64,000 nucleotides of DNA from assembly GCA_049322915.1 (NCBI GenBank), contig JBMOPW010000034.1, positions 32,001 through 96,000 of the forward strand, read 5' to 3'. A model generated the notes under the pieces. The model ran no database searches. It saw only the letters and a list, made by a program, of their open reading frames with translations, and was not told the DNA's origin. Source of the stretch: Candidatus Zhuqueibacterota bacterium (GTDB lineage: Bacteria > Zhuqueibacterota > Zhuqueibacteria > Thermofontimicrobiales > Thermofontimicrobiaceae). The translations under genes were made by a program, and so were the position numbers. Shown piece after piece: positions 32,651-49,083 of this stretch. Numbering within the stretch: the stretch's first letter is position 1; each line of letters begins with the position of its first letter.

Positions 32651-32876
32651 ACCGCAACATACTTAAAATAAAACCTCCAGTCAAGAGAAAAATCAATATT
32701 GTAAAATTGCAACAACCAACTTCATGGAATAGATATTGCAATTTCTTTGCTTATTGTTGTTTAGAGTAACAACTCATTTGGTCAAAATCCCTTGGCAACA
32801 ATGCAATACATGAGCAATCAGGCTTCTTGGTTTGAAAATACTCCTTCCTTAACATGGGGGAATGAGGAAGTACAGT

Positions 32877-32960: not shown

Positions 32961-34334
32961 GTGAAAAAAATTCTAATTTCAGCCCTGCTTGGAATCGTTC
33001 TGGTTGGGTGCGCTTCCCAAAATCAGTTTCGTTCCGCAGATCAATTACTCGAACGGGGTGACTATACCAGCGCGCTCAAAGAGTATCTCGCTGTTGCCGA
33101 AGCGAGCGGCTCTCTGGTCACATCAAAAAATGTCCGCGCCCTGGAAGGAGCCATGATTGCCTATTTCAATATTGGCGAATACGCCAAATCCTTTTCGCTG
33201 AGCCGACAAATACTCACCTTTGATAAGTACAATAGCAGTGCTATTTTTTATGCCGGTATGAATTTGGAAAAGCTGAACAAGCTGACATTAGCGAAAAAGA
33301 TATTCCGTTACTACCTCGTCCTGTCCGATTATGATCCCTACAAAAGCCTCATCAAAGCCAAATTCAATGATCTCGTTCAAAAGGAAATGAAGATCCGAGC
33401 CAAATTAGCGATTCAGATGGAGAATAACATTAGTCTGGACCAGATCGATAGCAACACGCTGGCCGTTTTATATTTCATCAACATCATGGAAGATCCGGAG
33501 TGGGGGTCCATCGGAAAAGGATTGGCGGAGATGATGATTACCGACCTGGCCCAGGTGAAAAGCCTGAAAGTGATCGAGCGCATCGAGTTGCAAAAGCTGT
33601 TGGAAGAGTTGCAATTAGGCATGTCCGGCCTTGTCGATGAAAAAACGACGCCGCGAATGGGGAAGCTGCTCAAAGCTAAGATAGTGGTAAATGGTGCATT
33701 TACGGTCAATGCTGGTCAAAATTTAACCATAAATTCTGAGCCGGTGGACGTCACCGAAGCAAAAGTCTTCCAGGTCGGGGAGTTCAGCGGCATTCTGAAC
33801 GACATTTTCAGCATTGAAAAGAAAATTGTTTTTAACATTTTGGAAGAGCTGAATATTACACTCTCAGCCAGCGAGAAAAAGAAAATTGGAAAATTCGCCA
33901 CGAACAATCTGCAGGCATTTAAAGCCTACTGCAATGGTCTCGATGAATATGATTTTGGCAATTATGATACTGCAAATTCTTACTTTCAGCAAGCTGTTGA
34001 TATTGACCCAAATTTTTTACTCGCAGCGGACATGCTGAGCATTACCAGCGCCATGAACGTTATTGAGCGCGCCCATTTTGTGCAATTTCATTTCCGACCG
34101 AGGCAACGGGGAATTGGGCCGGGTGTTCACGCTCATTCCATGCGCGCTAGAAATTCGACGCAGTTTCGGCTGCAACAGCTTTCGCGTAATATGGCTCTCA
34201 TCTATCTGCCCGGGACAGAGTCACGGAACGGCTCTTCGGAAATAATTACCCGGGAAGATTTTTGGCGCGGCACGGACTGGCAGTTCCCGGCAGAGATTTT
34301 GCCGCCGCCGCCTGATCCACCGCCGGGCCGATAA
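32961..34334 (+). CDS. Lipoprotein with TPR, CsgG/HfaB-like and TPR domains, Pro-rich tail
   Basis: GTG start with AGGAG; lipobox LVG-C; LAVLYF..GLAEMMITDL..VIER..LLEELQL..GLVD..GKLL; ends LPPPPDPPPGR. Confidence 0.8.
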   Translation: MKKILISALLGIVLVGCASQNQFRSADQLLERGDYTSALKEYLAVAEASGSLVTSKNVRALEGAMIAYFNIGEYAKSFSLSRQILTFDKYNSSAIFYAGMNLEKLNKLTLAKKIFRYYLVLSDYDPYKSLIKAKFNDLVQKEMKIRAKLAIQMENNISLDQIDSNTLAVLYFINIMEDPEWGSIGKGLAEMMITDLAQVKSLKVIERIELQKLLEELQLGMSGLVDEKTTPRMGKLLKAKIVVNGAFTVNAGQNLTINSEPVDVTEAKVFQVGEFSGILNDIFSIEKKIVFNILEELNITLSASEKKKIGKFATNNLQAFKAYCNGLDEYDFGNYDTANSYFQQAVDIDPNFLLAADMLSITSAMNVIERAHFVQFHFRPRQRGIGPGVHAHSMRARNSTQFRLQQLSRNMALIYLPGTESRNGSSEIITREDFWRGTDWQFPAEILPPPPDPPPGR

Positions 34335-34387
34335 GCCCTCCAATGAATTTAAACAGAACATTGAGCACTCAAATTGGAGTTCATCCT

Positions 34388-35527
34388 ATGCAAAGGACAC
34401 GAATCATTTTAATTTTATCAGCGCTCCTGGGATTGTTAAGCGCAGTAACCGCCCAGAATTATTCTCCAATCATCGATACCGTAAAAGTACAACAGCGAGA
34501 CAATAGCTTCCTGGTTGATATTTACTACGACGTCATCGATACTGAATATGATTCGCTTATTGTGTTCATCCACGTATCCGAGGATAGCGGCGCGACGTTC
34601 AACGTCCCGGTGAATGCGCTGAGCGGTGACTTCGGATATCAAATTTACCCGGGCACAGACCGGCATATCGTCTGGGATGCCGGCAAAGACTATCCCGAGA
34701 AATTTGGCAAGAAATTCAAAGTGAAATTGACAGCCAGTGACACGAAGCTGAACCACGGGGAGGCGATTCCCCCGGGTGGATTTTACATGGGTGACAGCGC
34801 CGGATTCGATGATCCGCGCCATCTGATTGCGCTGGATGATTTCGAGGTGAGTCGTTACGAAGTGACGAATGCAGAATATCGTCTGTTTTGCGAAATGACA
34901 GATCGCGAATTTCCACCGGAAGGAGGATTGTTCCAGCCACCGAAAGGCTATTTTCTTGAATATAAAAATTACCCTGTGGTTGCCGTGAGCTGGTACGACG
35001 CTGTGCTGTATTGCAATTGGTTGAGCGAGCTACAGGGGCTGGAGCAATGTTACAACACAGTCAATTGGGTTTTCGATGAAACGAAGAACGGTTATCATTT
35101 GCCCACGGAAGCCCAATGGGAAAAAGCAGCGCGCGGCGGACTGGAAAAGATGCTTTATCCCTGGGGCGATGACCATCCGCCTGAAACCCGGGCGAACTAT
35201 CAAAATTACGCCGGCGATTTGATCACACTCATGGCCAACTTCGACGGACAGGGAAGAGGCACTCTGATGGTGGATACCCTAACCACCAATGGTCTTGGAT
35301 TGTATCAAATGGCCGGAAATGTCTGGGAATGGTGCAACGATTGGTACAATGATGAATATTATTATGACTCCCCTGATGAAAATCCACTTGGTCCGACGTC
35401 CGGTTCTGACCGAGTGATACGAGGTGGCGCATGGAATACCTCGGATATTTATCTTCATTGTGCGGCGCGGGATATGAAAGCGCCGGATAGAAAGCGGTAT
35501 GATATCGGTTTTCGGGTTGCACGTTAA
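34388..35527 (+). CDS. Secreted FGE-sulfatase (SUMF1/C-type lectin fold) domain protein
   Basis: Signal peptide; FYMG, YEVTNAEY, PVVAVSWYDA, LPTEAQWEKAARGG, MAGNVWEW, RVIRGG, IGFR. Confidence 0.9.
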   Translation: MQRTRIILILSALLGLLSAVTAQNYSPIIDTVKVQQRDNSFLVDIYYDVIDTEYDSLIVFIHVSEDSGATFNVPVNALSGDFGYQIYPGTDRHIVWDAGKDYPEKFGKKFKVKLTASDTKLNHGEAIPPGGFYMGDSAGFDDPRHLIALDDFEVSRYEVTNAEYRLFCEMTDREFPPEGGLFQPPKGYFLEYKNYPVVAVSWYDAVLYCNWLSELQGLEQCYNTVNWVFDETKNGYHLPTEAQWEKAARGGLEKMLYPWGDDHPPETRANYQNYAGDLITLMANFDGQGRGTLMVDTLTTNGLGLYQMAGNVWEWCNDWYNDEYYYDSPDENPLGPTSGSDRVIRGGAWNTSDIYLHCAARDMKAPDRKRYDIGFRVAR

Positions 35528-35568
35528 TGACGCATCGAATCAACTGAACAAAACATCACGAGGATAAC

Positions 35569-38500
35569 ATGAAAGCATACACATGGCAACGCGTTCTCTC
35601 ACTGGTCATTGCCATACATTTTCTGGGACTGTCGTTTGCACATGCCGACATCACATCAAAGCACAGCAATATTTTTACGCTGGATACTCGCGTTCAAAAT
35701 CCCGATCCGGTGGATGGCTGGCAGATCGTGACAAACCAGGGCAACACCTACAATGAAGATATCATCATCGATGACGTCGGCAAGGTATGGTGCTTTTATT
35801 TGAGAAACATCGGCCCGAACCCGCCAGTGTACATGAAGATTTTCACTTCGACAGGGTATATTTACAAGCACGAAACGGTTGTGGGGCATGCATCGCCTTT
35901 TACCTACTTCGTGCAGAATTCAATACGCGCCGCGCTCAATTCCGAGACTGGCGATGTCTGGGTGGCATTGGAGGGTAATTCCGGCGGTTATTTTGTCCGT
36001 TACGACTCCACCGGTGAGGTGGTTCAGGATTCCACGTTGCTCGCCGAAGAGTCTCATCTGCCCAAGATTATTGAAGGGACCGATGGTCAAATGTGGTTTT
36101 CGTGGCACACTTTCGCTAATGGCGGAGCCGAAAGTTTTGGGAAAATCGCAGCCTATTCTAACAGTGGCGCTCTTGCAATTCGACCCATATTTGTGAGTCA
36201 GTTTAATAATGTCTTCAATACAGATATTGCCATGGACGACAGCAATCAGATCTGGGTGGTGCTCGATAGCAATGACAATGGCAATTTCGCCAGCCGGTAC
36301 TGTGTGTTCAATGAGGATTTAGATCTCATCATCGCCGGCAATGTGATCAGCAATAATCCAATTCCATTGAACCCGCAGCGCCAGATTCTGGCTGACCGCA
36401 TCAATGGAAGGGTCTGGATTCTGGCCAAAAATGATACCACGCAAAAACAGAAACTCAATATGTATGGATTGGATGGTTCTCTTTTGACCAGCATCAACAA
36501 TGTCGGCGAATGCGCCTTTCTGAGAAATGAAACCAACCATCTGGAAGTGATGCGATTCAACAGCTCGGATCCATTGAACAAGCTGTACCAGATCGCCATG
36601 TTCAACGCGCAGGACGGAAGTCTATTTCAGGATTGGACCACTGAATTTGACAGCACCTACAGTTTTGTGAGAAATGGCTTGTCCTACGAGGGTGCTCAGA
36701 ATGGACTCAAAATCTACGCTGTCCATGAGGAAGAAAATTTAACCCGAATAAAATTTTTAGAGGTGACAGCCGGCTTGCCGGAAATTACGATCAGCCCGTC
36801 TTCCGTCAACTTCGATACAACGAAAATTATAAACGGTTACATTAAACATAAAGATATCAAAGTTTCCAATATCGGCAATGCAACTTTGGCGATCACGGAT
36901 ATCAACAATGAACGATCCAATTTCTTCGTGAGCGACACGGTCTTGCAGCTTTCGCCCGGGCAATCAGATAATATCACGGTTTATTTTGACCCGGCGGATA
37001 CGAACGTCCTTTACGACACGCTCATCGTTCACAGCAACTCCGTTCAGAATAATCCATTCGAAGTGGCGCTCGCCGGCAGAGGCTATAATCCCGGCTTCCC
37101 TGATATTTTGGTCAATCCAACAACCCTCGATTTTGACTCACTGGTCGTCAGGAATTCACTGATCAGGTATCTATATGTGTACAATCAGGACGTGTATGAA
37201 CACCTTGTGATTTCCTCGGTGACGTCACAAAGTCCGCACTTTAGCCATAGCACCGATGGCTTCACACTTGGGCCGAAAAGAGGCGAGTATATTGCTGTCA
37301 CGTTTCGGCCAACGTATGCCGGCACTCATCTGGATACTCTTTACATCAGCAGCAATGACCCGGAAAATCCCAATCTGGCAGTTCCGCTTTTTGGAGTAGG
37401 CCTCAGTGGAGAAGAACCGCAGATCGTTGTGGATGTTGATTCACTGTACTTCGGCGAATTGGCGCTGGGACGTGATAAAGTTTTGTATGTTGGCATTGAG
37501 AATGAAGGACAGACCACTCTGACCGTCAGCGAAATCGCTTCCAGTGATTCTCAGTTTACTGCGGAGCCGGCAGAATTCTCCCTGTCGCCGTATTCAAAGC
37601 GATATATTGCAGTAAATTTCCACGCCTACCGTCTTGGCGAAGCGCTTGCAACGCTGACGATTCAAAGCGATGATCTGGAATTTCCAGAATATAACATCAA
37701 ACTTGTTGGGATCGGTAGGGAAGAGTACCCGCCGTCCATTTCGGTTTACAGCGATTCGATCGATTTCGGCATTGTTCCCGTGGGAAATCAGAGTTTAAAA
37801 TACTTCTGGGTCATCAATGAAGGCGAACAAACGCTGGATGTAGAAAGCCTTGTCTCCAGTGACAAACAGTTCATAACCGATCGATCGAGTTTTTCCCTGA
37901 CGCCGGGCGGCGTTCAAATGGTCGCTGTCACTTTTGTTCCGGATGAACCGGGACTGATAAATGCCGAACTGATCCTTTCGAGCAACGATCCTGAAAATAG
38001 CAGAAAATCTGTGACACTCGTTGGGCAGGGGAGAAATTTAACAGAGCCCAATCTGGTTGTCAATGCGCAACAACTCGATTTTGGCGCCGTTGGCATTTCG
38101 CATTCTACGACCAAATACTTCACGGTTTACAATAGCGGCGAACAGACGCTTTCTGTGACGAACATTTATATCAGTGGGGTTCAGGGTAATCCGTACAACG
38201 TTCATCCCGGTTCATTCAATCTTTCGCCGTACCAATATCAGACCATCTATGTCACTTTCACGCCCAACGTGCTCGGCCAACTGAATGGGACGTTGAATAT
38301 CGAAAGTAACGATCCTCCGACCCGAACCGTGAGTCTGGTGGGAACAGGCCGTTTATTGAACGACCCGAACCTGTATGTGGATAAATCGCTTGTCTCTTTC
38401 AGCGAGACCGCCATTACCCGAACGACTAACTCCTACCTCTGGTTCAGCAACACCGGAGAGCAGGAATTGATCGTGGAAACAATGACCCATTCGGACACGA

Positions 38501-41500
38501 GCTTTTCGGTCAATATCGATAATTTTTCTCTCAACCCGGGCCAGAGCCAGTACGTGGTCGTTTCATTCGCTCCGAAACAAGTGGGCGAATATCTGGACAC
38601 GCTGAAAGTTTACAGTAACGATCCTGAAGACCGCCTGAAAAATATTGTACTCCTGGGATCGGGCAGAAATTTGTATTCTCAGAACATTCAAATCTCCAAT
38701 GACAGCCTTGCTTTTGGAGCGGTCCCCATTAATCAGCGCATTACGTACGGCCTGGTCGTTTACAACACAGGGGAACAGGATTTGACCATCAGCAATATTG
38801 GAAACGCTCTTCCTGAATTTCTGGTCGACACGCGCCAGTTCACCGTTTCGTCCAATTCCTATCGCACCCTTTATATCACCTTTGAACCGGACTCGCTAAA
38901 AGATTATAATGATGAATTATCGATTTCAAGCAATGACCCGGAGACGCCCGTCTCAACAGTGAAACTCAGCGGCATTGGAAGGAATTTGCTGGATCAAAAT
39001 CTCGCCACCGCTCCGGATAGTCTGTTCTTCGGCAGTATTGGTGTTGGTTTGAATCACACGATGAGTATCCAGCTTAGAAATATCGGAGAAAAGAATCTGG
39101 TCATTGATAGCATCCGGGTCACTCATCCGATGTTCTCTCTCAGCGGCCAGTCTGCGTTGACATTGTCGCCGGGCGCATCCCAGTGGCTGAATATCACATT
39201 TACTCCAACTGCGGTGGATACGTTCGACGCGGAACTCCATTTGTACAGCGACGACGTCGACTCCTCGGATTTCATTGTCCCGCTTCTTGGCTATGGCCGG
39301 GAATTGACCGGGCCGAATCTCGTCGTTTCTCCTGATGAATTGAATTTTCAGGATGTCCCTGTTCGCGGTATTGAGGAAGTCTTTTTGAGCGTTTACAATT
39401 CTGGCGAACAACATTTGAATATCACCGATATTCAGTCCGGAGATGTTCAATTCGTGCCGGCTCCTACAGAACTCACGTTAAGTCCGGGCGCGTCCCAATT
39501 GGTCAAAGTGACGTTCTCTCCCATGGCGATCGATACATTCGAAACTGAACTGATCTTTTTTAGCAATGACGGCGATAGCAGCGAATTTGAAGTTCCGATG
39601 ACTGGCATCGGTCGCGATTTGAGGGAGCAGAATTACGTCAGCAACGTCAAGTCTGTGGAATTCGGGGAAGTCATGCTTGGACAACGCATCACACGAAGCA
39701 TCACGTTCTCCAATAGCGGCGATCTTCCGCTTGTTCTTTACAATTGCACGACGACCGACACCCATTTTGTCTGCGCAACCGATTCGTTCATCGTCATCGG
39801 CGGCAGTGAGTATGCACTGCAAATAACATTTACACCGAGTGACACGCATTTTGTCCAGGCAGATTTGATTTTCAATACCAACGACCCTGATGTCTATTCA
39901 ACCACCATTCCGCTGCGAGGCTCAGGACAAATGGACACGCAGCAGATCGCTGTTTCGCCGGGCGCACTTTCTTTTGGCGATGTGAGAATTCATACAACGC
40001 GCAGCAGGTCAATTCAGGTGAGTAACTTTGGAGAGAAGACGCTCAATGTTTTCAATATCATTCCGACCGACACGGTTTACTCAACCAGCATTGGCAGTTT
40101 CTCTCTCATTCCCAACGAGACCCGAACTGTGTTCGTTTATTTCACTCCGGACACGATCAGATCTTATCAAGCGCAACTATTGTTTGTGAGCGATGATCCG
40201 GTCACGGATACTTTGGCCGTTATCCTGTATGGCGTTGGCAGAGATTCGCTGAGCGCGGCAATTACAACAAGCACCGACAGTCTGGGATTTGGTGAAGTCG
40301 CGGTGGACTTCTCTCGCTCCATTCACATGACCCTGTACAACTCCGGCGAAAAGACATTGCAGATCAGCAATATCACCACCACAGATTCTGTCTTCTCAGT
40401 CGGTCTGACGAATTTCAATGTCAATCCAAACTCTCAGGCGCTTCTGTTGGTTACATTCACGCCCGAAAGTATCACGAGCTACGCGGATACACTGACCATT
40501 TTCAGCAACGATCCGAACAACGACACGCTGCTGATTGAGCTCACCGGCATTGGCAGAAAGCAAAATGATCAGCATATTGCAGTCTCAGATACCTCGCTCA
40601 ATTTTGGCGTGGTGCCGACCGACCGATCGAGTACGAAAACTTTCTGGGTGTATAATAACGGTGAAAAGACGCTCGACGTCACTCAAATTGCAGTCAGCGA
40701 TTCGCAATACACGGTGAACAAAGAATGGCTACTCATTGCGCCGGGTCAGTATGAATACCTGCAGGTGACCTTCTCGCCAGATTTAGAAGATACAATTAAG
40801 GCCGTGCTGACGCTGACAAGCAATGATCCGGACGAATCTGATAAAACGATTCAACTCTCAGGGATAGGAGAATTGTACACCGGGCCAAGAATTATTGCCC
40901 TGAACAATTCACTGAATTTCGGCAATATGTTGATTGGCGCCACCAAAAAAATGACGTTCCGGGTTAAAAATCTGTCCCTGACTGATACCCTGATCATCAA
41001 TAACCTGACGTCGAATAACAGCAATTTTACCGTTTCAAAAAGTGAAATAAAAGCTCCTCCGATGGATAGCACGTCCATTCAGGTGACATACAAACCGAAT
41101 TCCATTGGCTATCATTCGGCTGCCCTGACGTTGTATTCCAATGATCTGTACCAGGAGCAGTTTAATTTCTGGGTATATGGACAGGGCATTTCCGAAAATG
41201 TCGGCACCAATTATTTAGCAAATCTGGGATGGAAAGTGAATGGGTATTCTCCATTCGGTCAGTATTTCAGCCCCAATCCGTATACAGATGACGTCCTGAG
41301 CGGTAGTGACATCCTGAACGATCCTAATGGCCGAGCCGACCGTGCCTGGTTCGTGAAAGATGTCTTCATTTATGACAATCCGGATACTGCGATTTTGAAT
41401 ATTTGCTATGATGATCAAATTTTTCTCTATGTCAATGGCACGTATGTTTACAATGACACCTCGGCCACGCCGCTCCACTGGAACATCGCTGATTTGAATG

Positions 41501-44034
41501 TCAAACCCTATCTGAAATTGGGCCGAAATCGGATAGCTATTTCCGTGTGGAATGAGTATAAAATTGGTGACTTCTTTTACGGCGGCTTCGATTGTGAATT
41601 CGTCGTGGATGGTGAAGCGAAAATCAGGCGCGGCGACCAGAACTGGACGCACCCGGATGCAACCTGGTGGTATTTTGGGGAGAACGGTGATTTTGAAACC
41701 AAGCCGGTTGACACAATTAACAATCGTCTATGGTTTTATGGCGAATACGGCCTGTCCGAAATCGATTCTGTCACGGCCAACTGGTCGTTCGAGCCGATTG
41801 TAGGCGATACGCTGTATGATGACACCCCGTACGGACAGGTTGCCATTCTGCACAACATAGCATGGATACAGGGGATCTCCGGTTCGTCCATGCGATTCAG
41901 CGGGGCCTATGACTCGTATGTTGAATTGCGGACCAATCTGAATACAGTTCCGCAGTCCATTGAGCTGTGGTTCAATTGCTACGGGCTTCGTTCCGGGTAC
42001 CAGAACATCATTACCAACAAAGGGAGCGGCTCCTTTGGCCATGGCTTATTCATCAATGAAACCGGCCTACTGGGCGTGTATTATTACGATGGTGAATTTC
42101 TGACCGACTACCTGGTTCAATTGAATACCTGGTTGTTCGTTTCCACGCAGTACTCCAATGATCGAATCAGGGTTTATATCAATAACACGCTCGTCGGGGA
42201 GTATGACATCACTGAGGATGAGGCAGGAAATCCCACCGGAGGAAATTACTGCTATCTTGGAGGCAATCCCCTGGGGGCTGATACAACGGCATTCAACGGC
42301 GCTATCGATGAATTGGTGATTAAAAACTCGGCATTTGCGCCATCGCCGATGCAAGCGGTCGCGACAATTTCAGTTTCAGAGCCGGACTCCGTGGTCAAAT
42401 TGAAAGAGTTGCAATTATCGTTCAATGTGTTCCCCAGCCCGTTTAAGCTGATCAGCGGAACCCTGGAATATGCAAAGGGCGGAAGCCAGAATTACCATTC
42501 AGTGACAGTGCCTGCGTCCGATTCGCTCGTTTCACCGGTCATCGTCAGTATTCCCGCCGACTCGATGACCATTCGGGGATTGAAGTACAGAATCTACCTC
42601 ACGACGAATTATGGGTCGGTTTATTTCCCACAAACCGGCGAGGGCGAAGAATATTTCTCCTGGATCAATGTCAGGACCAGCGGCGAGAATTCAACAGTGA
42701 CAATTCCTGAAAAGATATATAAGATGGTTTCTGTCCCGTACGAAGCGGACAGCCAATCGGTGTTTTCTGTGCTTGCCGATGATTTGAAAGAATACAATCC
42801 ATATTTCTGGCGATTGTTCGAATGGGATCATGAAGATACCCAGTATGTTGAATTCGGCGATACGCTCTGGCAATCCGGCCGAGGATTTGAACGCGGAAAA
42901 TCCTACTGGTTAATCTCAACCCGCGCTCTCAGTTTCGATGCCGGCTCAGGACATTCACCATCTGAGACGCATTATCGAATACAGCTAACCCCGGGCTGGA
43001 ACATGATTTCCAATCCATTCCCGTATTCTGTGAGCTGGCTCTCTGTTCTGAAATCGTCAGAGGGCATCGCCGATCCGGTTTATTGGGCTGCCGATGACAC
43101 AATTCGCTGGATTTACAATGTGGAGGAATTGGCGCCGTGGGCTGGTTATTTTCTCTGGAACGGAGACGCCAGCACGCGAAGTATTCTGATTCCGCCTCTG
43201 GAGTCGAGTGAAGTGCCTTTGAAAAAGCCGCTTTCGCTGGCAGATCGATACGAGGAAAAATATGGACAAATCTCAGTTTTGATCGCTGCAGAAGCGCGGT
43301 GCGGAAGATTTGTCGATATAGACAACCTGTTCGGCATCGCTGAAAACGCGAACAACGAACTGGATAGCTACGATATGAAGGAGGCGCCGGCTATTGGCAA
43401 TTTCGTGTCCCTGTTCATCGATAATAAGTCGTGGTCAGAGCAGGGGGGAGCTTACACTGTGGATATCCGAAAGCAGGATGGCGCCGGACAATGCTGGCCA
43501 GTCACGCTTTTATATACACTGGAAAGTCCGCCCAATAACATGTCCCTCTCATTGAAACCAATAACGGCGTTGCCTGAAGATTGGTCGATGTATCTTTTTG
43601 ACCTGTCAAATGATTTAGCCGTGAATATCGGTGAAGAGAAAAGCCTTGCTTTCAAGCCGGTGGCCAAACAACCGACGAAGAAAAATTATAAATTGATTGT
43701 TGGTACCCGGGAGTTCATCGAAAGCAATTCGGACGGGATACCGCTGGTTCCGCTCAAGTTTGAATTGTTCCAGAATTATCCTAACCCGTTCAATGCAGCG
43801 ACGACCATCAGTTTTAATCTCCCGGAACGAATGAAAGCGACTGTGAAAATCTACAATGTGCTGGGGCAACTTGTAAAGACTGTTGTAGACGATGCGGAGA
43901 TGCGTGGCGGGCATCAAACGCTCATTTGGGACGGAAAGAACGAGCATGGTAATTTGGTCACAACAGGCCTGTACCTGGTTCGTTTGGAGACCAAAAAGGA
44001 CATCGCCATTAAGAAGCTACTCTTAATCAAGTAA
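35569..44034 (+). CDS. Giant secreted surface protein: N-terminal beta-rich region, 14 choice-of-anchor D/ASH-type Ig repeats, jelly-roll, LamG-like domain, FlgD-Ig/T9SS-type C-terminal tail
   Basis: Signal peptide; repeat consensus P.I.V...L.FG.V......N.GE..L.I.....F....L.PG....V.F.P......L.I.SNDP......L.G.G; LamG FNGAIDEL; tail LFQNYPNPFN...IYNVLGQLV...WDGKN...GLY...KKLLLIK. Confidence 0.88.
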   Translation: MKAYTWQRVLSLVIAIHFLGLSFAHADITSKHSNIFTLDTRVQNPDPVDGWQIVTNQGNTYNEDIIIDDVGKVWCFYLRNIGPNPPVYMKIFTSTGYIYKHETVVGHASPFTYFVQNSIRAALNSETGDVWVALEGNSGGYFVRYDSTGEVVQDSTLLAEESHLPKIIEGTDGQMWFSWHTFANGGAESFGKIAAYSNSGALAIRPIFVSQFNNVFNTDIAMDDSNQIWVVLDSNDNGNFASRYCVFNEDLDLIIAGNVISNNPIPLNPQRQILADRINGRVWILAKNDTTQKQKLNMYGLDGSLLTSINNVGECAFLRNETNHLEVMRFNSSDPLNKLYQIAMFNAQDGSLFQDWTTEFDSTYSFVRNGLSYEGAQNGLKIYAVHEEENLTRIKFLEVTAGLPEITISPSSVNFDTTKIINGYIKHKDIKVSNIGNATLAITDINNERSNFFVSDTVLQLSPGQSDNITVYFDPADTNVLYDTLIVHSNSVQNNPFEVALAGRGYNPGFPDILVNPTTLDFDSLVVRNSLIRYLYVYNQDVYEHLVISSVTSQSPHFSHSTDGFTLGPKRGEYIAVTFRPTYAGTHLDTLYISSNDPENPNLAVPLFGVGLSGEEPQIVVDVDSLYFGELALGRDKVLYVGIENEGQTTLTVSEIASSDSQFTAEPAEFSLSPYSKRYIAVNFHAYRLGEALATLTIQSDDLEFPEYNIKLVGIGREEYPPSISVYSDSIDFGIVPVGNQSLKYFWVINEGEQTLDVESLVSSDKQFITDRSSFSLTPGGVQMVAVTFVPDEPGLINAELILSSNDPENSRKSVTLVGQGRNLTEPNLVVNAQQLDFGAVGISHSTTKYFTVYNSGEQTLSVTNIYISGVQGNPYNVHPGSFNLSPYQYQTIYVTFTPNVLGQLNGTLNIESNDPPTRTVSLVGTGRLLNDPNLYVDKSLVSFSETAITRTTNSYLWFSNTGEQELIVETMTHSDTSFSVNIDNFSLNPGQSQYVVVSFAPKQVGEYLDTLKVYSNDPEDRLKNIVLLGSGRNLYSQNIQISNDSLAFGAVPINQRITYGLVVYNTGEQDLTISNIGNALPEFLVDTRQFTVSSNSYRTLYITFEPDSLKDYNDELSISSNDPETPVSTVKLSGIGRNLLDQNLATAPDSLFFGSIGVGLNHTMSIQLRNIGEKNLVIDSIRVTHPMFSLSGQSALTLSPGASQWLNITFTPTAVDTFDAELHLYSDDVDSSDFIVPLLGYGRELTGPNLVVSPDELNFQDVPVRGIEEVFLSVYNSGEQHLNITDIQSGDVQFVPAPTELTLSPGASQLVKVTFSPMAIDTFETELIFFSNDGDSSEFEVPMTGIGRDLREQNYVSNVKSVEFGEVMLGQRITRSITFSNSGDLPLVLYNCTTTDTHFVCATDSFIVIGGSEYALQITFTPSDTHFVQADLIFNTNDPDVYSTTIPLRGSGQMDTQQIAVSPGALSFGDVRIHTTRSRSIQVSNFGEKTLNVFNIIPTDTVYSTSIGSFSLIPNETRTVFVYFTPDTIRSYQAQLLFVSDDPVTDTLAVILYGVGRDSLSAAITTSTDSLGFGEVAVDFSRSIHMTLYNSGEKTLQISNITTTDSVFSVGLTNFNVNPNSQALLLVTFTPESITSYADTLTIFSNDPNNDTLLIELTGIGRKQNDQHIAVSDTSLNFGVVPTDRSSTKTFWVYNNGEKTLDVTQIAVSDSQYTVNKEWLLIAPGQYEYLQVTFSPDLEDTIKAVLTLTSNDPDESDKTIQLSGIGELYTGPRIIALNNSLNFGNMLIGATKKMTFRVKNLSLTDTLIINNLTSNNSNFTVSKSEIKAPPMDSTSIQVTYKPNSIGYHSAALTLYSNDLYQEQFNFWVYGQGISENVGTNYLANLGWKVNGYSPFGQYFSPNPYTDDVLSGSDILNDPNGRADRAWFVKDVFIYDNPDTAILNICYDDQIFLYVNGTYVYNDTSATPLHWNIADLNVKPYLKLGRNRIAISVWNEYKIGDFFYGGFDCEFVVDGEAKIRRGDQNWTHPDATWWYFGENGDFETKPVDTINNRLWFYGEYGLSEIDSVTANWSFEPIVGDTLYDDTPYGQVAILHNIAWIQGISGSSMRFSGAYDSYVELRTNLNTVPQSIELWFNCYGLRSGYQNIITNKGSGSFGHGLFINETGLLGVYYYDGEFLTDYLVQLNTWLFVSTQYSNDRIRVYINNTLVGEYDITEDEAGNPTGGNYCYLGGNPLGADTTAFNGAIDELVIKNSAFAPSPMQAVATISVSEPDSVVKLKELQLSFNVFPSPFKLISGTLEYAKGGSQNYHSVTVPASDSLVSPVIVSIPADSMTIRGLKYRIYLTTNYGSVYFPQTGEGEEYFSWINVRTSGENSTVTIPEKIYKMVSVPYEADSQSVFSVLADDLKEYNPYFWRLFEWDHEDTQYVEFGDTLWQSGRGFERGKSYWLISTRALSFDAGSGHSPSETHYRIQLTPGWNMISNPFPYSVSWLSVLKSSEGIADPVYWAADDTIRWIYNVEELAPWAGYFLWNGDASTRSILIPPLESSEVPLKKPLSLADRYEEKYGQISVLIAAEARCGRFVDIDNLFGIAENANNELDSYDMKEAPAIGNFVSLFIDNKSWSEQGGAYTVDIRKQDGAGQCWPVTLLYTLESPPNNMSLSLKPITALPEDWSMYLFDLSNDLAVNIGEEKSLAFKPVAKQPTKKNYKLIVGTREFIESNSDGIPLVPLKFELFQNYPNPFNAATTISFNLPERMKATVKIYNVLGQLVKTVVDDAEMRGGHQTLIWDGKNEHGNLVTTGLYLVRLETKKDIAIKKLLLIK
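36778..41187 (+). repeat. 14 tandem ~105-aa Ig-like protein repeats, diverged at the DNA level
   Basis: Counted repeat starts from PEITISP to PRIIALN, most with an SNDP-like motif. Confidence 0.85.
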
Positions 44035-44093
44035 AAGATACGCTCTGGAAATCGGAAGAAAGTCAATGTGCTATGAAAATTTGGAGAATACCC

Positions 44094-45185
44094 ATGTATA
44101 AAATCTATTTGAAAATTCTCGCGGTGATTGCAATATCAGGAACTTTGATCGCTGCGCCTGAGGGTGGAAGATTATCCACTGGATTTGTCTTTCAGAAATG
44201 GACGATTGAAAACGTCACGAATCCGGTTTCCGAAGGCTCCTTTCCGATTGAATTGATCTATCCTTTCATGGATAACCTTCAGGTTCAGGTGAGTCATTTG
44301 CCGGCTCTGTCACAATTTGGTGAATCAAATCTGGCAGGGCTTTCCGACACCTGGATCAGAACGTCGTATTCGCTGATGAACAATCAACTGGCGCTCAGTC
44401 TTGGGGTTGGCCTCCCTACAGGAAAAACAGAGTTGGACTCCACTGAAATCCTCATCACCCAACTCATCAGTCAAAATTCATTCAAGTTCCGACTGCCTGT
44501 TTTTGGTCAAGGCCTGACGCTCTCTGGCGGCGTGATGTATGCGCTGCCAGTGAATGATCTCTTCACAGTGGGTATTGGTGCAAATTATGTGTATCGAGGT
44601 CAATATAAATTCAGCAAACTTTCCCCCTTCGAATATGACCCGGGCGATCAGATTGGTGGAAATATCGGATTTGATTATTCAATCAATCCGTCTCTCACCG
44701 CAAGTCTTGATTGTGTTTATAGCTATTACCTCGCGGACAAGCTGGACAAGACCGAGGTTTTCACCTCTGGTCCCAATTTCACGATTAAATTATTCACCCA
44801 ATACAAACTCGACTTCGGCGATCTGTGGCTGAATGCTTTCTATCGCGCAAAATCCAGGAATGAAACGTGGGATGGCCAGGCGTTGGCGCCGGAAGCGAAA
44901 AATTCGAATGTCACTTTGCGTGAAGTTGAGTTGGGGTCCCGGATCCGGCTCAATGAAATCGTCTTCATCAACGTGCTCACTGAGTTGAGAACCTATGCAA
45001 AGAATGAGTACGATACAGGATCGATCACCATTTTTGGTGGCGGCATTGGATACGATTTATCAGTAACACGGAACTTTGCCCTCTCTATGGGAATTAAATT
45101 GTTCTTCGGAAATGGTGAATTTTTCAATACCACTCCGTCGTTAACTGGCAATGAGTTTTATTTTGGTACTCAATGGTACTTCTAA
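44094..45185 (+). CDS. Putative outer-membrane beta-barrel protein
   Basis: Signal peptide, alternating beta-strand pattern, GLSDTW, LPTGKTEL, YDPGD, C-terminal aromatic YF. Confidence 0.7.
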   Translation: MYKIYLKILAVIAISGTLIAAPEGGRLSTGFVFQKWTIENVTNPVSEGSFPIELIYPFMDNLQVQVSHLPALSQFGESNLAGLSDTWIRTSYSLMNNQLALSLGVGLPTGKTELDSTEILITQLISQNSFKFRLPVFGQGLTLSGGVMYALPVNDLFTVGIGANYVYRGQYKFSKLSPFEYDPGDQIGGNIGFDYSINPSLTASLDCVYSYYLADKLDKTEVFTSGPNFTIKLFTQYKLDFGDLWLNAFYRAKSRNETWDGQALAPEAKNSNVTLREVELGSRIRLNEIVFINVLTELRTYAKNEYDTGSITIFGGGIGYDLSVTRNFALSMGIKLFFGNGEFFNTTPSLTGNEFYFGTQWYF

Positions 45186-45199
45186 TCTGATTAACTTAC

Positions 45200-45895
45200 A
45201 TGGATCATGCGATGAAAAAAATTTTCATTCTGTCGTTACCCTTGTTTCTCTTTATCTCTTTAATTTCGTTTTCTCATGCAACTGAAAAAACAATCGCTCT
45301 TCTTGATTTTTCAAATAATTCTCTTTTCGATAAAGAGAAATATTCCTCATTGTCACCTGGTTTGGCTGAAATTATGATCACCGAACTCAGCAAAATAAAA
45401 GCATTCAAATTGGTGGAGAGAAAAAAAATCAACGCACTGATTGAGGAGATGCAACTTTCGCAGAGTGGTTTGATTTCCGAGGAAAGCAATATTCAGGTCG
45501 GAAAATTACTGGGAGCACAATATCTCGTCTTTGGCAGTTACATGGTTAATTCAAAAGATAAGGTGCGAATCGATGTGCGTATTGTCGAGGTGGAAACAGG
45601 CTTGACAATTAAGGCCGAGGAAGTGACGGACAAACTCGATAAAATATTCGATATCATTAAAAAGCTCAATGATAAAATTATAAAAGACCTGGACATCAAA
45701 TTATCAAGCGCAGAACGGCAGACCTTAGACGAGGGAAGTGCTTCATTAGAAGTGATTGCCTATTTTTCCCAGGGAATAGCATTTGAAGAGAAAAAAGAAT
45801 TCGAAAAAGCAAAACAGATGTACATCAAGGCATTGAAAAGTGATCAAAGTTATGAGCCAGCAAAGACGCGCCTGAAAGAACTGATGCAGAAATAA
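45200..45895 (+). CDS. CsgG/HfaB-like domain plus TPR periplasmic protein
   Basis: Signal peptide (alternative start 45212); IALLDFSN..GLAEIMITEL..LVERKKI..EEMQL..GKLLGAQYLVFGS..DVRIVEVETG; C-terminal TPR. Confidence 0.82.
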   Translation: MDHAMKKIFILSLPLFLFISLISFSHATEKTIALLDFSNNSLFDKEKYSSLSPGLAEIMITELSKIKAFKLVERKKINALIEEMQLSQSGLISEESNIQVGKLLGAQYLVFGSYMVNSKDKVRIDVRIVEVETGLTIKAEEVTDKLDKIFDIIKKLNDKIIKDLDIKLSSAERQTLDEGSASLEVIAYFSQGIAFEEKKEFEKAKQMYIKALKSDQSYEPAKTRLKELMQK

Positions 45896-45914: not shown

Positions 45915-45973
45915 AAAAAGCATTTAACTATTAATTTCTTAATGGATAAAAAAACAATAGTTGAATGCTTTTT
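45915..45973. terminator. Bidirectional terminator-like hairpin
   Basis: AAAAAGCATTTAACTATT...AATAGTTGAATGCTTTTT between convergent genes. Confidence 0.65.
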
Positions 45974-46657: not shown

Positions 46658-46729
46658 GCGGGAGTAGTTCAGTGGTAGAACACCACCTTGCCAAGGTGGT
46701 TGTCGCGAGTTCAAGTCTCGTCTCCCGCT
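46658..46729 (+). tRNA. tRNA-Gly(GCC)
   Basis: GCGGGAG/CTCCCGC acceptor; CCACC-TTGCCAA-GGTGG. Confidence 0.96.
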
Positions 46730-46737
46730 CAATTTTA

Positions 46738-46810
46738 GGCGGCGTAGCCAAGTGGCTAAGGCGGAGGTCTGCAAAACCTCTATGCATCGGTTCGACTCCG
46801 ATCGCCGCCT
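46738..46810 (+). tRNA. tRNA-Cys(GCA)
   Basis: GGCGGCG/CGCCGCC acceptor; GAGGT-CTGCAAA-ACCTC. Confidence 0.96.
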
Positions 46811-46823
46811 CGTCTAAGTAAGA

Positions 46824-46909
46824 GCCGGGGTGGCGGAATTGGTAGACGCAAGGGACTTAAAATCCCTCGGATATTTATATCCGTGCCGGTTCGACTCCGG
46901 CCCTCGGCA
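46824..46909 (+). tRNA. tRNA-Leu(TAA)
   Basis: AGGGA-CTTAAAA-TCCCT anticodon arm; long variable arm. Confidence 0.96.
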
Positions 46910-46992
46910 CATATCGAAAATAAGTGCTGTAAATAAATCTTAAAAGCGGAGTCATTTTATTTATGGCACGCTTTTTTATTATAAAAATACAC

Positions 46993-47066
46993 GGGCGATT
47001 AGCTCAGATGGTTAGAGTGCTTGCTTGACATGCAAGAGGTCACTGGTTCAATTCCAGTATCGCCCA
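46993..47066 (+). tRNA. tRNA-Val(GAC)
   Basis: GGGCGAT/ATCGCCC acceptor; CTTGC-TTGACAT-GCAAG. Confidence 0.96.
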
Positions 47067-47163
47067 CTAACATAATGAAAAAATTGAGATATGCCGAATT
47101 CTGCACACAATGGGGATTCGGCTTATAATATTTAGAGGCTGTTAATAAACTGTAAATTGTGAC

Positions 47164-49083
47164 ATGAATAAAATTACAATTACATTCCCTGACGGAGAAC
47201 AGAAAGCCTTTGACAAGGGTATCACCCCGGAGGCAATAGTCAAGGAAATAAGCCATTCATTGGCCAAGAAAACCGTTGCGGCAAAGTTAAATGACAGGTT
47301 GATTGATATTAACAGGCCTTTAGTCGAAAATGGAACGCTTGTTTTTATCACCAATGATACAAAAGAAGGGCGGGAAGTCTTCTGGCATAGCACCGCTCAC
47401 ATCATGGCCCACGCAATAAAGAGATTATATCCCGAAGCAAAATTTGGCTTTGGCCCGGCTCTTGAGGATCGTTTTTTTTATGATTTCGAAATCAATAAAT
47501 CCCTTAGCCTGGAAGACCTGGACGCAATTGAAAAAAAGATGATGGAAATCGTGGAAGAAGATGCTCCATTCATCCGCGAAGAAATTTCAAGGGAAGAAGC
47601 GGTGAAAATTTTCACCGAAAGAAAAGAGCCCTATAAAGTCGAGCATATTGCCGATCTTGACAGCAATACGAGCATCTACAAAGAAGGTGATTTTATCGAC
47701 CTGTGCTCCGGTCCGCATCTTCCGTCGACTGGGCTGGTGAGAAACTTCAAGCTACTGGCTATTTCTGGCGCCTATTGGAAGGGCAATGAAAAAAATCCAA
47801 TGCTTCAACGGATTTATGGAGTTTCCTATCCCAAGAAAACCGAGTTGGATGATTTCCTGTTCAAATTAGAAGAAGCTAAAAAGCGCGATCACCGCCGGTT
47901 GGGACGCGAGTTGGATCTGTTCAGCATAAACGATGATTGCGGAGCTGGTTTGATACTATGGCATCCTAAAGGTGCACTCATCAGAAAAATAATGGAAGAT
48001 TTCTGGCGGGATGAACATCTCGAAGCCGGTTACGAATTAGTCAACACTCCACATATTGCGCGACTCGACCTGTGGGCGAAAAGTGGTCACTTAGATTTCT
48101 TCACCGAAAATATGTACAGCCCAATTGAAATGGACAACATGAAATACCAGTTAAAGCCCATGAATTGTCCGTTTCATTTACTCATTTATAAGAGCCAGGG
48201 AAAAAGCTATCGCGATTTACCAATACGATGGGCTGAATTAGGCACCGTGTATCGCTACGAGCGTTCTGGCGTTTTGCATGGTTTGATGCGAGTTCGGGGA
48301 TTCACTCAGGATGATGCCCACATTTTTTGTCGACCGGACCAACTCCAGGATGAGATTATTAATTGTTTAGATTTCACAATGTTCATTCTAACGACTTTTG
48401 GCTTCAGTGAATTCGAAATTTATTTATCCACACGACCAGAACATTTCGTCGGGACAATTGAAAACTGGGACCAGGCAACGAATGCGTTGAAAAATGCTTT
48501 AGAAAAAAGAGAGTTAGATTATACAATCGATCCCGGTGAAGGCGTCTTTTATGGCCCGAAAATTGATATAAAAATCAAGGACAGCCTTGATCGCGCCTGG
48601 CAATGTACGACCATTCAAGTAGATTTCAATGAACCGGCGCGATTTGATATAACGTATCGCGGCCAGGATGGTCAGGAATATCGGCCCATTATGATTCACA
48701 GGGCACTTATGGGATCATTGGAGCGTTTTTTTGGAACGTTGATCGAGCATTATGCCGGTGCTTTTCCAATTTGGCTTTCTCCGGTTCAGGCTATTGTTCT
48801 ACCCATCACGGATGCTCATGCGGAATATGCAACTCATTTAGAAAAACTCCTAAAAGAGAAAAAAATTCGTTGCAAAGTTGATGATCGAAACGAGAAGGTC
48901 AATCTGAAAATACGTGAAGCCGAAATTCAAAAAATACCTTATATGCTGATTGTCGGGGATAAAGAAAAACAAACAGTTCAGGTGTCAGTTCGAAAAAGGA
49001 AAGAGGGAGATTTAGGTCAATTTCAGATAAATGACTTGATCAATAAAATCACCACAGAAATCGAAAATAAAGTTTGTCACTGA
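47164..49083 (+). CDS. thrS: Threonine--tRNA ligase
   Basis: TGS domain, WHSTAH, DLCSGPH, KPMNCP, RVRGFTQDDAH, IHRA. Confidence 0.98.
   Translation: MNKITITFPDGEQKAFDKGITPEAIVKEISHSLAKKTVAAKLNDRLIDINRPLVENGTLVFITNDTKEGREVFWHSTAHIMAHAIKRLYPEAKFGFGPALEDRFFYDFEINKSLSLEDLDAIEKKMMEIVEEDAPFIREEISREEAVKIFTERKEPYKVEHIADLDSNTSIYKEGDFIDLCSGPHLPSTGLVRNFKLLAISGAYWKGNEKNPMLQRIYGVSYPKKTELDDFLFKLEEAKKRDHRRLGRELDLFSINDDCGAGLILWHPKGALIRKIMEDFWRDEHLEAGYELVNTPHIARLDLWAKSGHLDFFTENMYSPIEMDNMKYQLKPMNCPFHLLIYKSQGKSYRDLPIRWAELGTVYRYERSGVLHGLMRVRGFTQDDAHIFCRPDQLQDEIINCLDFTMFILTTFGFSEFEIYLSTRPEHFVGTIENWDQATNALKNALEKRELDYTIDPGEGVFYGPKIDIKIKDSLDRAWQCTTIQVDFNEPARFDITYRGQDGQEYRPIMIHRALMGSLERFFGTLIEHYAGAFPIWLSPVQAIVLPITDAHAEYATHLEKLLKEKKIRCKVDDRNEKVNLKIREAEIQKIPYMLIVGDKEKQTVQVSVRKRKEGDLGQFQINDLINKITTEIENKVCH

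Follow-up and report, generated by a model that had tools for sequence, protein, structure and literature searches.

A barrel and TolB-like lipoprotein module beside giant type IX secretion cargos in Candidatus Zhuqueibacterota, a candidate docking complex at the outer membrane

How does a bacterium of an uncultured phylum display a protein of 2821 residues at its surface, and what do the genes packed around that protein contribute? This question is raised by a five-gene locus within a 64,000-nucleotide stretch of Candidatus Zhuqueibacterota DNA (assembly GCA_049322915.1, contig JBMOPW010000034.1, positions 32,001 to 96,000), hereafter the window, in whose coordinates positions are given. The initial annotation, made from the letters alone, took the genes, here called g1 to g5, for a self-contained surface-display system with a CsgG/HfaB-like pore. 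Our analysis indicates that three of the five genes form an undescribed outer-membrane module, kept across the phylum, which most likely holds surface proteins in place and does not most likely form a curli-type pore. The genes, as called from open reading frames (ORFs), are as follows.

32946/32961-34334, forward strand: g1 (ORF call; GTG 32961 is the start of the initial annotation)
34343-35527, forward strand: g2 (ORF call; alternative start at 34388)
35569-44034, forward strand: g3 (ORF call; 2821 amino acids)
44073/44094-45185, forward strand: g4 (ORF call; 363 amino acids from 44094)
45200/45212-45895, forward strand: g5 (ORF call; 227 amino acids from 45212)

The description of five close-packed, co-oriented genes with leaders (32961-45895, forward strand) stands: the gaps from g1 to g5 are in turn 8, 41, 38-59, and 14-26 bp, and a hydrophobic leader, judged by inspection of the sequence, opens each of the five products.

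Is this arrangement kept in relatives? Within a phylum set of 167 genomes (105 of high quality), a profile search finds the barrel family represented by g4 in 120 genomes and in 75 of the high-quality ones, often in several copies; these genome tallies include two unpublished genomes (G158 and G162), which enter no locus, alignment, tree, or model. Among 150 listed barrel places, 40 were examined, picked for long contigs and family spread and not at random, and these loci represent 31 genomes and 16 families. Written as gene strings (L, g1-like; F, g2-like; C, cargo with a domain that we call C1; B, barrel; s, g5-like), they are distributed as follows.

LFCB(s): 7 loci, all from families f1/f2
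LCB: 7 loci
sLCB: 10 loci
CB: 2 loci, one with a split g1 and one with g1 across the locus border
sLB: 7 loci
LB: 5 loci
Barrel ORF masked by ORF picking: 2 loci, g1-like gene present

A g1-like gene, usually encoding a lipoprotein, stands beside the barrel in all 40 loci. It lies directly 5' of the barrel, or is parted from it only by the cargo (plus g2 in 7 loci), in 36 of them, and the other 4 are the two with a masked barrel, the one with a split g1, and the one with g1 across the locus border. The invariant core is g1 plus the barrel, and the conserved synteny on which the initial annotation had made its proposal depend is found throughout the 31 genomes and 16 families. Since the same gene order recurs across relatives in the phylum, the arrangement is not one of chance. 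A cargo gene lies between g1 and the barrel in 26 loci, and its product carries a type IX secretion system (T9SS) tag each time, so that gene order supports a putative display module dedicated to a giant adhesin, much as had been supposed. The five-gene composition holds for the window, where all five genes are present, but not for the phylum: the g2-like gene occurs in 7 of 40 loci, and the g5-like gene, present in 24, lies 5' of g1 in 18 and takes the position 3' of the barrel in 6 (only f1/f2). From these tallies the phylum as a whole therefore has a module of three to four genes, which one order has elaborated into the five-gene form. A single-peptide-pattern search of the genome contigs returned nine loci, all of close KSB1 type. 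Tandem cassettes, with g1, cargo, and barrel twice running, were seen in families f22 and f24 (L061/L084 on G036:C16, L066, L067, and L068).

What does the core serve? The parts of g3 run from a signal peptide through an N-terminal region of ~380 amino acids, 14 choice-of-anchor-D/ASH Ig-like domains, and a LamG domain (Laminin_G_3) to C1 and a sorting domain, the last two located as follows.

42469-43773, forward strand: C1 domain (g3 residues 2301-2735, ~430 amino acids, alignment A3)
43777-44031, forward strand: T9SS type A C-terminal sorting domain (g3 residues 2737-2821)

The tag matches TIGR04183 at 36.8 bits (cut-off, 23) and PF18962 at 31.8 bits (cut-off, 27; residues 2737-2818), along with FlgD_ig, and no type B sorting model is present among the eight NCBIfam matches of g3. 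These matches predict that g3 is a type A cargo of the T9SS. BLASTP finds C1 and the tag in all 26 barrel-linked cargos, with C1 25-67% identical to that of g3, and C1 is the sole part besides the tag that all of them have in common. In length the linked cargos span 927 to 3144 amino acids (1469 at locus L085). Their passenger domains differ, the nine further cargos scanned with Pfam displaying LVIVD, BNR, and FG-GAP propellers, LamG domains, and Ig repeats.

C1 itself matches no Pfam family even at an E value of ≤1, a profile search of the C1 region against the PDB finds matches only in the tag region (to FlgD and PorU), and the ESM Atlas offers only sub-threshold leads (0.87). A profile of C1 alone recovers 11,901 representative clusters at E ≤ 1e-3, of which 3,341 remain at E ≤ 1e-30, and in nearly all of the 150 best clusters the match ends ~85-100 residues before the C-terminus. 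Within the phylum, 146 of the 167 genomes have C1, the number of matches reaching 12 in a single genome. As far as sequence can tell, C1 is an undescribed and very large family of tag-proximal domains that has no Pfam model. A strict co-occurrence of C1 and barrel was considered and rejected on the per-genome tallies, which include families rich in C1 (f11 and f14) and genomes with the barrel only. The own genome encodes a second C1 protein on contig C14 (G000:C14:859337-865851), where a g5-like gene lies 2 kb upstream and unrelated ORFs and masked bases lie between; this locus represents a cassette that has degenerated or else a cargo that is served in trans.

Does the genome hold a machinery that could read such a tag? 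The search for SprA, PorV, and PorU called for in the initial annotation recovered all of them above their cut-offs, with SprA at 712.8 bits, PorV at 258.3, and two PorU proteins at 868.7 and 818.5, and SprA exceeds its cut-off in 163 of the 167 phylum genomes. No GldK was found above the cut-off in the own genome, and GldM and GldL gave no match in searches whose controls were likewise silent; the genome could encode a T9SS without the PorKLMN motor. With a type A tag on the cargo, SprA, PorV, and PorU in the genome, and SprA nearly throughout the phylum, export by the five genes on their own, as had been proposed, is unlikely. In addition, a hidden Markov model built from the tag columns of alignment A2 identifies 201 tag-bearing ORFs in the genome, and PorV-like barrels occur at 29 places (32 matches minus three second stretches of the same ORFs), among them G000:C32:28779-37648, C2:9803-13661, and C16:212671-216240. 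A tag-bearing ORF lies within 1.5 kb of 18 of these 29 places, compared with 5.15 ± 2.1 in random placement (maximum, 11; 200 draws). This organism therefore has a general habit of placing behind a cargo gene a barrel of its own, which suggests that the genome holds many cargo-specific shuttle or anchor barrels.

What kind of barrel is g4? No Pfam or NCBIfam family matches it at E ≤ 0.01. The AlphaFold2 model, built with 38 homologues, is a closed beta-barrel (predicted local distance difference test, or pLDDT, 84.3; predicted template modeling score, 0.75), whose best match among 48,161 PDB representatives is CdiB (Z 20.2; root mean square deviation, or rmsd, 3.2; 282 residues aligned). Other fold matches are FhaC (Z 18.5), CymA and BcsC (both 18.0), PelB (17.2), PgaA (16.4), and FadL (14.8), and general porins reach 16-17. 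Because the porins score about as high as the conduits and the rows are nearly tied, the fold of g4 does not discriminate between them. The model predicts g4 to be a 16-strand-type outer-membrane barrel without POTRA domains, of an unnamed family, and the most conserved stretch is a long helix-bearing loop (residues ~108-144). An assignment to PorP/SprF was rejected, since the four PF11751 matches of the genome all lie elsewhere; g4 is also absent from the 32 PorV (NF033710) matches of the genome, and a relation to PorV was not accepted after alignment A1 had been compared by hhalign with 23 PorV-like proteins of the same genome (61% probability over 63 columns). Barrel clusters with near-identical features in the ESM Atlas (0.98-0.99; template modeling score, TM, 0.87-0.91) come from Ignavibacteriota, Zixibacteria, and Gemmatimonadota, a lead which suggests that the family reaches into these phyla.

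The fold matches of the barrel raise an alternative, which we consider unlikely: g1, g4, and g5 might constitute an export gate of their own (PelBC-, Slam-, or two-partner-like), with a ring of TolB-N/PelC-like and tetratricopeptide repeat (TPR) units under the barrel. What such a gate moves across the outer membrane would be a polymer, a lipoprotein, or a portion of the cargo; the tag would then have its use at another step, or else the exported product would be bound by the lectin-like giant. The best matches of g4 are indeed conduits, nearly tied among themselves (CdiB, FhaC, BcsC, PelB, and PgaA), and the structural neighbours in the ESM Atlas (TM 0.60-0.64) include clusters with 12% Slam members, most being BBP2_2. 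In addition, there are 14 loci in which the g1-barrel pair stands without a cargo gene. The closeness of porin and conduit scores, however, deprives the fold of discriminating power, and g4 has neither POTRA nor a fused TPR domain. The operon contains no glycosyltransferase, synthase, or polymer-modifying gene, and none was met in a scan of 46 neighbouring proteins; a polysaccharide-export context was ruled out on that scan. Since all 26 linked cargos are T9SS tagged and SprA is near-universal, a second export route is unneeded.

What, then, is the partner of the barrel? The product of g1 (457 amino acids) has a leader of lipoprotein type ending in a VGC lipobox, followed by an N-terminal TPR region, a TolB-N/PelC-like alpha/beta domain, a second TPR region, a conserved tail motif, and a proline-rich C-terminus. 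C17 is nearly invariant in alignment A4 (34 sequences), and the lipobox pattern is present in 32 of 43 g1-like ORFs. The product of g5 (227 amino acids) is exported, is not a lipoprotein, and comprises a TolB-N/PelC-like domain and one TPR unit. In their central module the two are paralogues, with 173 residues aligned at 32% identity (E 7e-22). In Pfam, g1 matches TPR families and part of CsgG (E 2.3e-11, profile positions 34-99 of 210), and g5 likewise matches part of CsgG (E 4.3e-16, positions 8-97 of 210), with weaker matches to LpoB and FlgO and one TPR. The AlphaFold2 model of g5 (pLDDT 89.1; 19 homologues) displays a compact alpha/beta domain with five strands at residues ~25-160, some 135 residues in size, and then TPR helices. 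Its best fold match is the N-domain of TolB (Z 14.1, rmsd 2.4, 125 residues aligned), and further matches are FlgT in the LPHT ring (Z 13.2), CT253 (11.6), PelC (11.1-11.3), CsgG (11.0, at an rmsd of 5.9), and LpoB (10.8). Of the two features named beforehand as together speaking against the proposal, a fold of the TolB_N/FlgO type and a lack of predicted contacts, the first is what the g5 model returns.

A CsgG protomer contributes two transmembrane beta-hairpins, from which the channel is built, and no hairpin insertions able to form such a channel are present in the g5 model; the analogy to the CsgG/HfaB pore therefore fails a defining feature. The profile of alignment A5 meets CsgG chains at an E value of only 0.005, over ~50 residues. 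With 32% identity between the paralogues as the ground, the result obtained on the g5 model is carried over to g1, and the "CsgG-like" domains of both are placed in the wider TolB-N/PelC/LpoB fold, of whose members several assemble into rings beneath the outer membrane. The paired paralogues, one of them a lipoprotein, are thus confirmed, but as TolB-N/PelC/LpoB-type proteins that lack the CsgG hairpins, and the curli-type pore (CsgG/HfaB, PF03783) is not supported, given the match to only the N-terminal half of the profile, the missing hairpins, and the closer N-domain of TolB. The absence of curlin genes, also recorded in the initial annotation, holds at the locus. Returning to an export gate formed by g1, g4, and g5, the PelC matches of g5 include chain C of the PelBC complex 9h80, in which, according to the accessible text of PMC12141448, twelve PelC lipoproteins are ringed on the PelB barrel.

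The wider family of g1 brings in another possibility. A profile search with g1 finds 169 proteins at E ≤ 1e-10, and among the best 120 of these, ~70 have the length of g1 (~420-490 amino acids, E below ~1e-100) and are named in their sources as hypothetical, TPR, TolB-like, or CsgG/HfaB proteins. The others listed in that best 120 match the central TolB-like and TPR part alone (~42% of the query, E 1e-18 to 1e-33), and they are the extracytoplasmic parts of Ser/Thr kinases, adenylate cyclases, and winged-helix regulators. One could accordingly picture g1 and g5 as an envelope sensor or scaffold, in which the TolB-like and TPR binding unit reports the state of barrel or cargo to signalling proteins and so controls adhesin display. 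This kinship of the central module is one point in its favour, and another is that CadC can be superposed, through its periplasmic sensor domain, on the whole g5 model (182 residues, Z 9.7). Moreover, a Ser/Thr kinase with PEGA domains lies directly 5' of the g5-like gene in 3 of 40 loci (L062, L069, and L075). We nevertheless hold this explanation to be quite improbable: neither g1 nor g5 has an output domain or a transmembrane signalling domain, the kinase is missing from the window and from 37 of the 40 loci, and the strict adjacency is to the barrel, not to a signalling gene. A sensor would also be compatible with a scaffold role in a docking complex, and does not exclude docking. The three kinases are encoded at L062:8994-10859, L069:15132-17030, and L075:6484-8751 (families f7, f14, and f15), and the g5-like genes adjoining them are longer (347-362 amino acids).

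Do the parts of the module change together? In a quick maximum-likelihood tree of 38 barrels, a branch with a support of 98 (Shimodaira-Hasegawa-like approximate likelihood ratio test) separates 11 cargo-less barrels from the 26 cargo-linked ones plus that of L062, a locus where a giant protein with weak similarity to C1 (E 8e-06) is encoded 3' of the barrel. The cargo label changes twice on this tree, against a mean of 10.4 changes in shuffles (0 of 500 as low), and the proline-rich g1 tail, as recognised by a sequence pattern, occurs in 21 of 24 g1 genes followed by a cargo against 1 of 12 (L062) followed directly by the barrel, relatives not being independent in either tally. Where the barrel follows immediately, the g1 product instead ends, L062 apart, in a short motif of alternating hydrophobic residues that resembles a beta-strand. 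Another motif, with nearly invariant R, P, and R, lies upstream of the tail and is common to both tail types. Seven more g1-like ORFs have no called neighbour; four have the proline tail (second cassettes in which the cargo is cut by the locus end) and three do not. Both cassette types are found within single genomes (G086, G036, G037, G039, and G030), and so they look like old paralogous sub-families, not recent copies.

Such co-variation bears on a further alternative, in which the genes have no function in common and are mere neighbours, or are kept in one operon because joint regulation is convenient. The presence of g2 and the position of g5 do vary by clade, as this would lead one to expect. 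We consider it extremely unlikely, however, given a g1-barrel adjacency seen in 40 of 40 loci from 16 families, a barrel clade, g1 tail type, and cargo presence that change together, and intergenic gaps of 8-59 bp.

The role of g2 is that of an elaboration of the core in our reading of the tallies, its FGE-fold gene being found only in the f1/f2 loci. The product is exported and consists of an N-terminal beta-rich domain and an FGE-sulfatase domain (PF03781, E 2.9e-55). Its best NCBIfam model is GldK, matched by the C-terminal half only, and the PorK chains 9ots and 9mzu are matched at E 1e-18; equivalence to GldK/PorK was rejected at a score of 138.7 bits against a cut-off of 350. In an alignment with human formylglycine-generating enzyme (FGE; 1y1e), two cysteines of that enzyme, which we take to be the catalytic pair, are replaced in g2 by T and L, and g2 is therefore regarded as a non-catalytic FGE-fold protein; an enzymatic identity was rejected on this replacement, despite the strong fold match. 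By its distribution g2 would be an accessory confined to one order. In family f3 (L056:4686-14048 and L058:4516-13950), the cargo carries the N-terminal beta-rich domain of g2 as a fusion at its own N-terminus (E 9e-13 and 5e-13), and a separate FGE-fold gene is missing from both loci. This fusion is a hint that the distal cargo end is what g2 usually acts on or together with.

How might these parts work together? As the best explanation, held tentatively and at a little less than an even chance, we propose that the locus specifies an outer-membrane complex for the docking or anchoring of its own cargo, in cooperation with the T9SS. In this proposal, g3 would be exported by Sec, its type A C-terminal tag would then take it through the SprA translocon, and the g4 barrel and the g1 lipoprotein would retain it at the surface via the tag-proximal C1. 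The g1 protein would sit under the barrel, at the periplasmic face of the outer membrane, where its TPR arms together with the TolB-N/PelC-like domain would provide a scaffold; the conserved C-terminal tail of g1 may contact the barrel or the cargo. The soluble g5, a paralogue of the g1 core, could add to this periplasmic scaffold, and g2 would be a clade-specific accessory, probably a binding subunit. We infer every physical contact, the order of events, and anchorage as their outcome. The proposal is preferred because the linkage of g1 to the barrel is obligate, C1 and the tag are present in all 26 linked cargos, and T9SS genes are present; because barrel clade, g1 tail type, and cargo presence co-vary; and because the genome follows the rule of cargo then barrel, with a precedent in PorE-PorP-PG1035 and SprF-SprB.

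Several observations weigh against docking. According to the accessible text of PMC9143113, type A tags in Bacteroidota are cleaved and the cargo becomes linked to lipopolysaccharide instead of being held by a PorP-like barrel. Barrels of 16 strands with TPR partners are typically conduits, not anchors, and g4 is not detectable as a member of PorP/SprF or PorV (PF11751 and NF033710). The distributions of C1 and barrel also come apart: C1 is present in 8 of 8 genomes of family f11 and 10 of 10 of family f14, whereas the barrel is present in 0 of 8 and 1 of 10, and the barrel occurs without C1 in G043, G045, and G110-G113. Finally, g1 and barrel stand without an intervening cargo in 14 of 40 loci, and the second C1 protein of the own genome (1132 amino acids, on C14) has no adjoining g1 or barrel.

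A bolder form of the docking complex, which seems to us improbable, would make g1 and g4 an unknown type of trans-outer-membrane tether for the T9SS in phyla without the lipopolysaccharide anchor of Bacteroidota. The tail of g1 would thread or plug the barrel and hold C1 at the surface, the domains of g1 and g5 would form a ring beneath, and C1 would represent a new domain for surface retention, in use among thousands of cargos. The features on which this form draws are the tail motif, seen in nearly all g1 proteins, and the proline-rich end, confined to cargo-linked cassettes.

The surroundings of the locus give further signals, which flank the operon as follows.

32704-32712 / 32736-32744, no strand: inverted repeat (9-nucleotide arms, 100% complementary, overlapping a TTGCAA palindrome)
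45915-45973, no strand: AT-rich hairpin (27-nucleotide arms, 85% complementary, 5-nucleotide loop; an A run and a T run at its flanks)

Upstream, where a palindromic site had been noted, the perfect 9-nucleotide inverted repeat (32704..32744) lies in the 590-bp intergenic region 5' of g1 and is a possible operator or promoter element. The start of g1 is most likely GTG 32961, which is preceded by an AAGGAG box, and that of g4 was set at 44094 because its homologues have 363 amino acids. As for the terminator claimed downstream, the hairpin at 45915-45973 with its A and T runs is there, but a consensus terminator scan does not have it on its list, its G-C pairs being too few; it is a plausible candidate for a bidirectional terminator. 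Four tRNA genes follow the operon at 46658-47067 (Gly-GCC, Cys-GCA, Leu-TAA, and Val-GAC), and the ORF at 47164-49083, 3' of the tRNA cluster, is also kept beside the cassette in close relatives.

What would such a module mean? Surface retention of T9SS cargos is understood only in a few Bacteroidota, where lipopolysaccharide serves for type A and PorP/SprF barrels serve for type B. The phylum considered here keeps a different barrel and a TolB-like/TPR lipoprotein beside giant type A cargos, which makes the pair a candidate for an alternative route of anchorage or docking. With it come an unnamed barrel family and C1, a large unnamed domain next to the sorting tag. A literature search (T9SS with CsgG/TPR, KSB1, and Zhuqueibacterota; supplements left aside) returned no description of the module, and within that literature the statement of the initial annotation that no characterised system has such a composition is upheld. 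The accessible part of the Zhuqueibacterota phylum description (PMC11683472, supplements aside) does not mention secretion, T9SS, adhesin, or outer membrane.

To which known systems does the locus come closest? The central TolB-like and TPR module of g1 and g5 is homologous to modules of Ser/Thr kinases, adenylate cyclases, and CadC-type regulators, but g1 and g5 are stand-alone exported proteins, which lack any cytoplasmic output domain and whose genes are linked to that of a barrel. With CsgG/HfaB the locus shares a lipoprotein (g1) and a weak similarity of the alpha/beta core (E 2.3e-11 and 4.3e-16; Z 11.0); it differs in matching only the N-terminal half of the profile, in its domain of ~135 residues, in having no hairpins, and in having no curlin or holdfast genes. 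The likeness to PelBC of Pseudomonas aeruginosa (9h80; accessible text of PMC12141448) is at the level of folds and extends to TPR, a small lipoprotein domain of TolB-N/PelC fold, and a 16-strand-type barrel, with g5 matching PelC at Z 11.1-11.3 and g4 matching PelB at Z 17.2, the latter tied with porins and TpsB barrels. In PelBC, however, the TPR is fused to the barrel, whereas here it is carried on the lipoprotein; no pel-type synthase genes are found nearby (operon and 46 neighbours), and the linked product is a T9SS-tagged protein, not a polysaccharide.

The closest resemblance in plan is to the anchorage of type B cargos in Bacteroidota. In the accessible text of PMC9143113, PorE (a TPR lipoprotein), PorP (a barrel), and PG1035 (a cargo) of Porphyromonas gingivalis form a complex, and SprF binds SprB in Flavobacterium johnsoniae; that of PMC12618676 describes the cognate PorP/SprF shuttles of F. 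johnsoniae as genetically linked to their own cargos. These systems, like ours, combine a barrel, a TPR protein associated with the outer membrane on its periplasmic side, and a tagged surface protein (PMC9143113 and PMC12618676, as far as accessible). The barrel gene likewise lies directly 3' of an often giant cargo gene, and the core T9SS (SprA, PorV, and PorU) is encoded elsewhere in the genome. In contrast, g4 has no PF11751 match, g1 scores 17.5 bits with the PorE model NF052230 (cut-off, 600), over its N-terminal TPR only and without WD40, CRD, or OmpA_C, and the tag of g3 is type A, not type B. The locus also adds the C1 domain of ~430 amino acids and a second TolB-like paralogue. Since all component families and the tag type differ, we regard the relation as a functional analogy and not as membership. 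If binding is confirmed, the principle of cognate shuttles and anchors known from PorP/SprF would extend beyond Bacteroidota and beyond type B tags.

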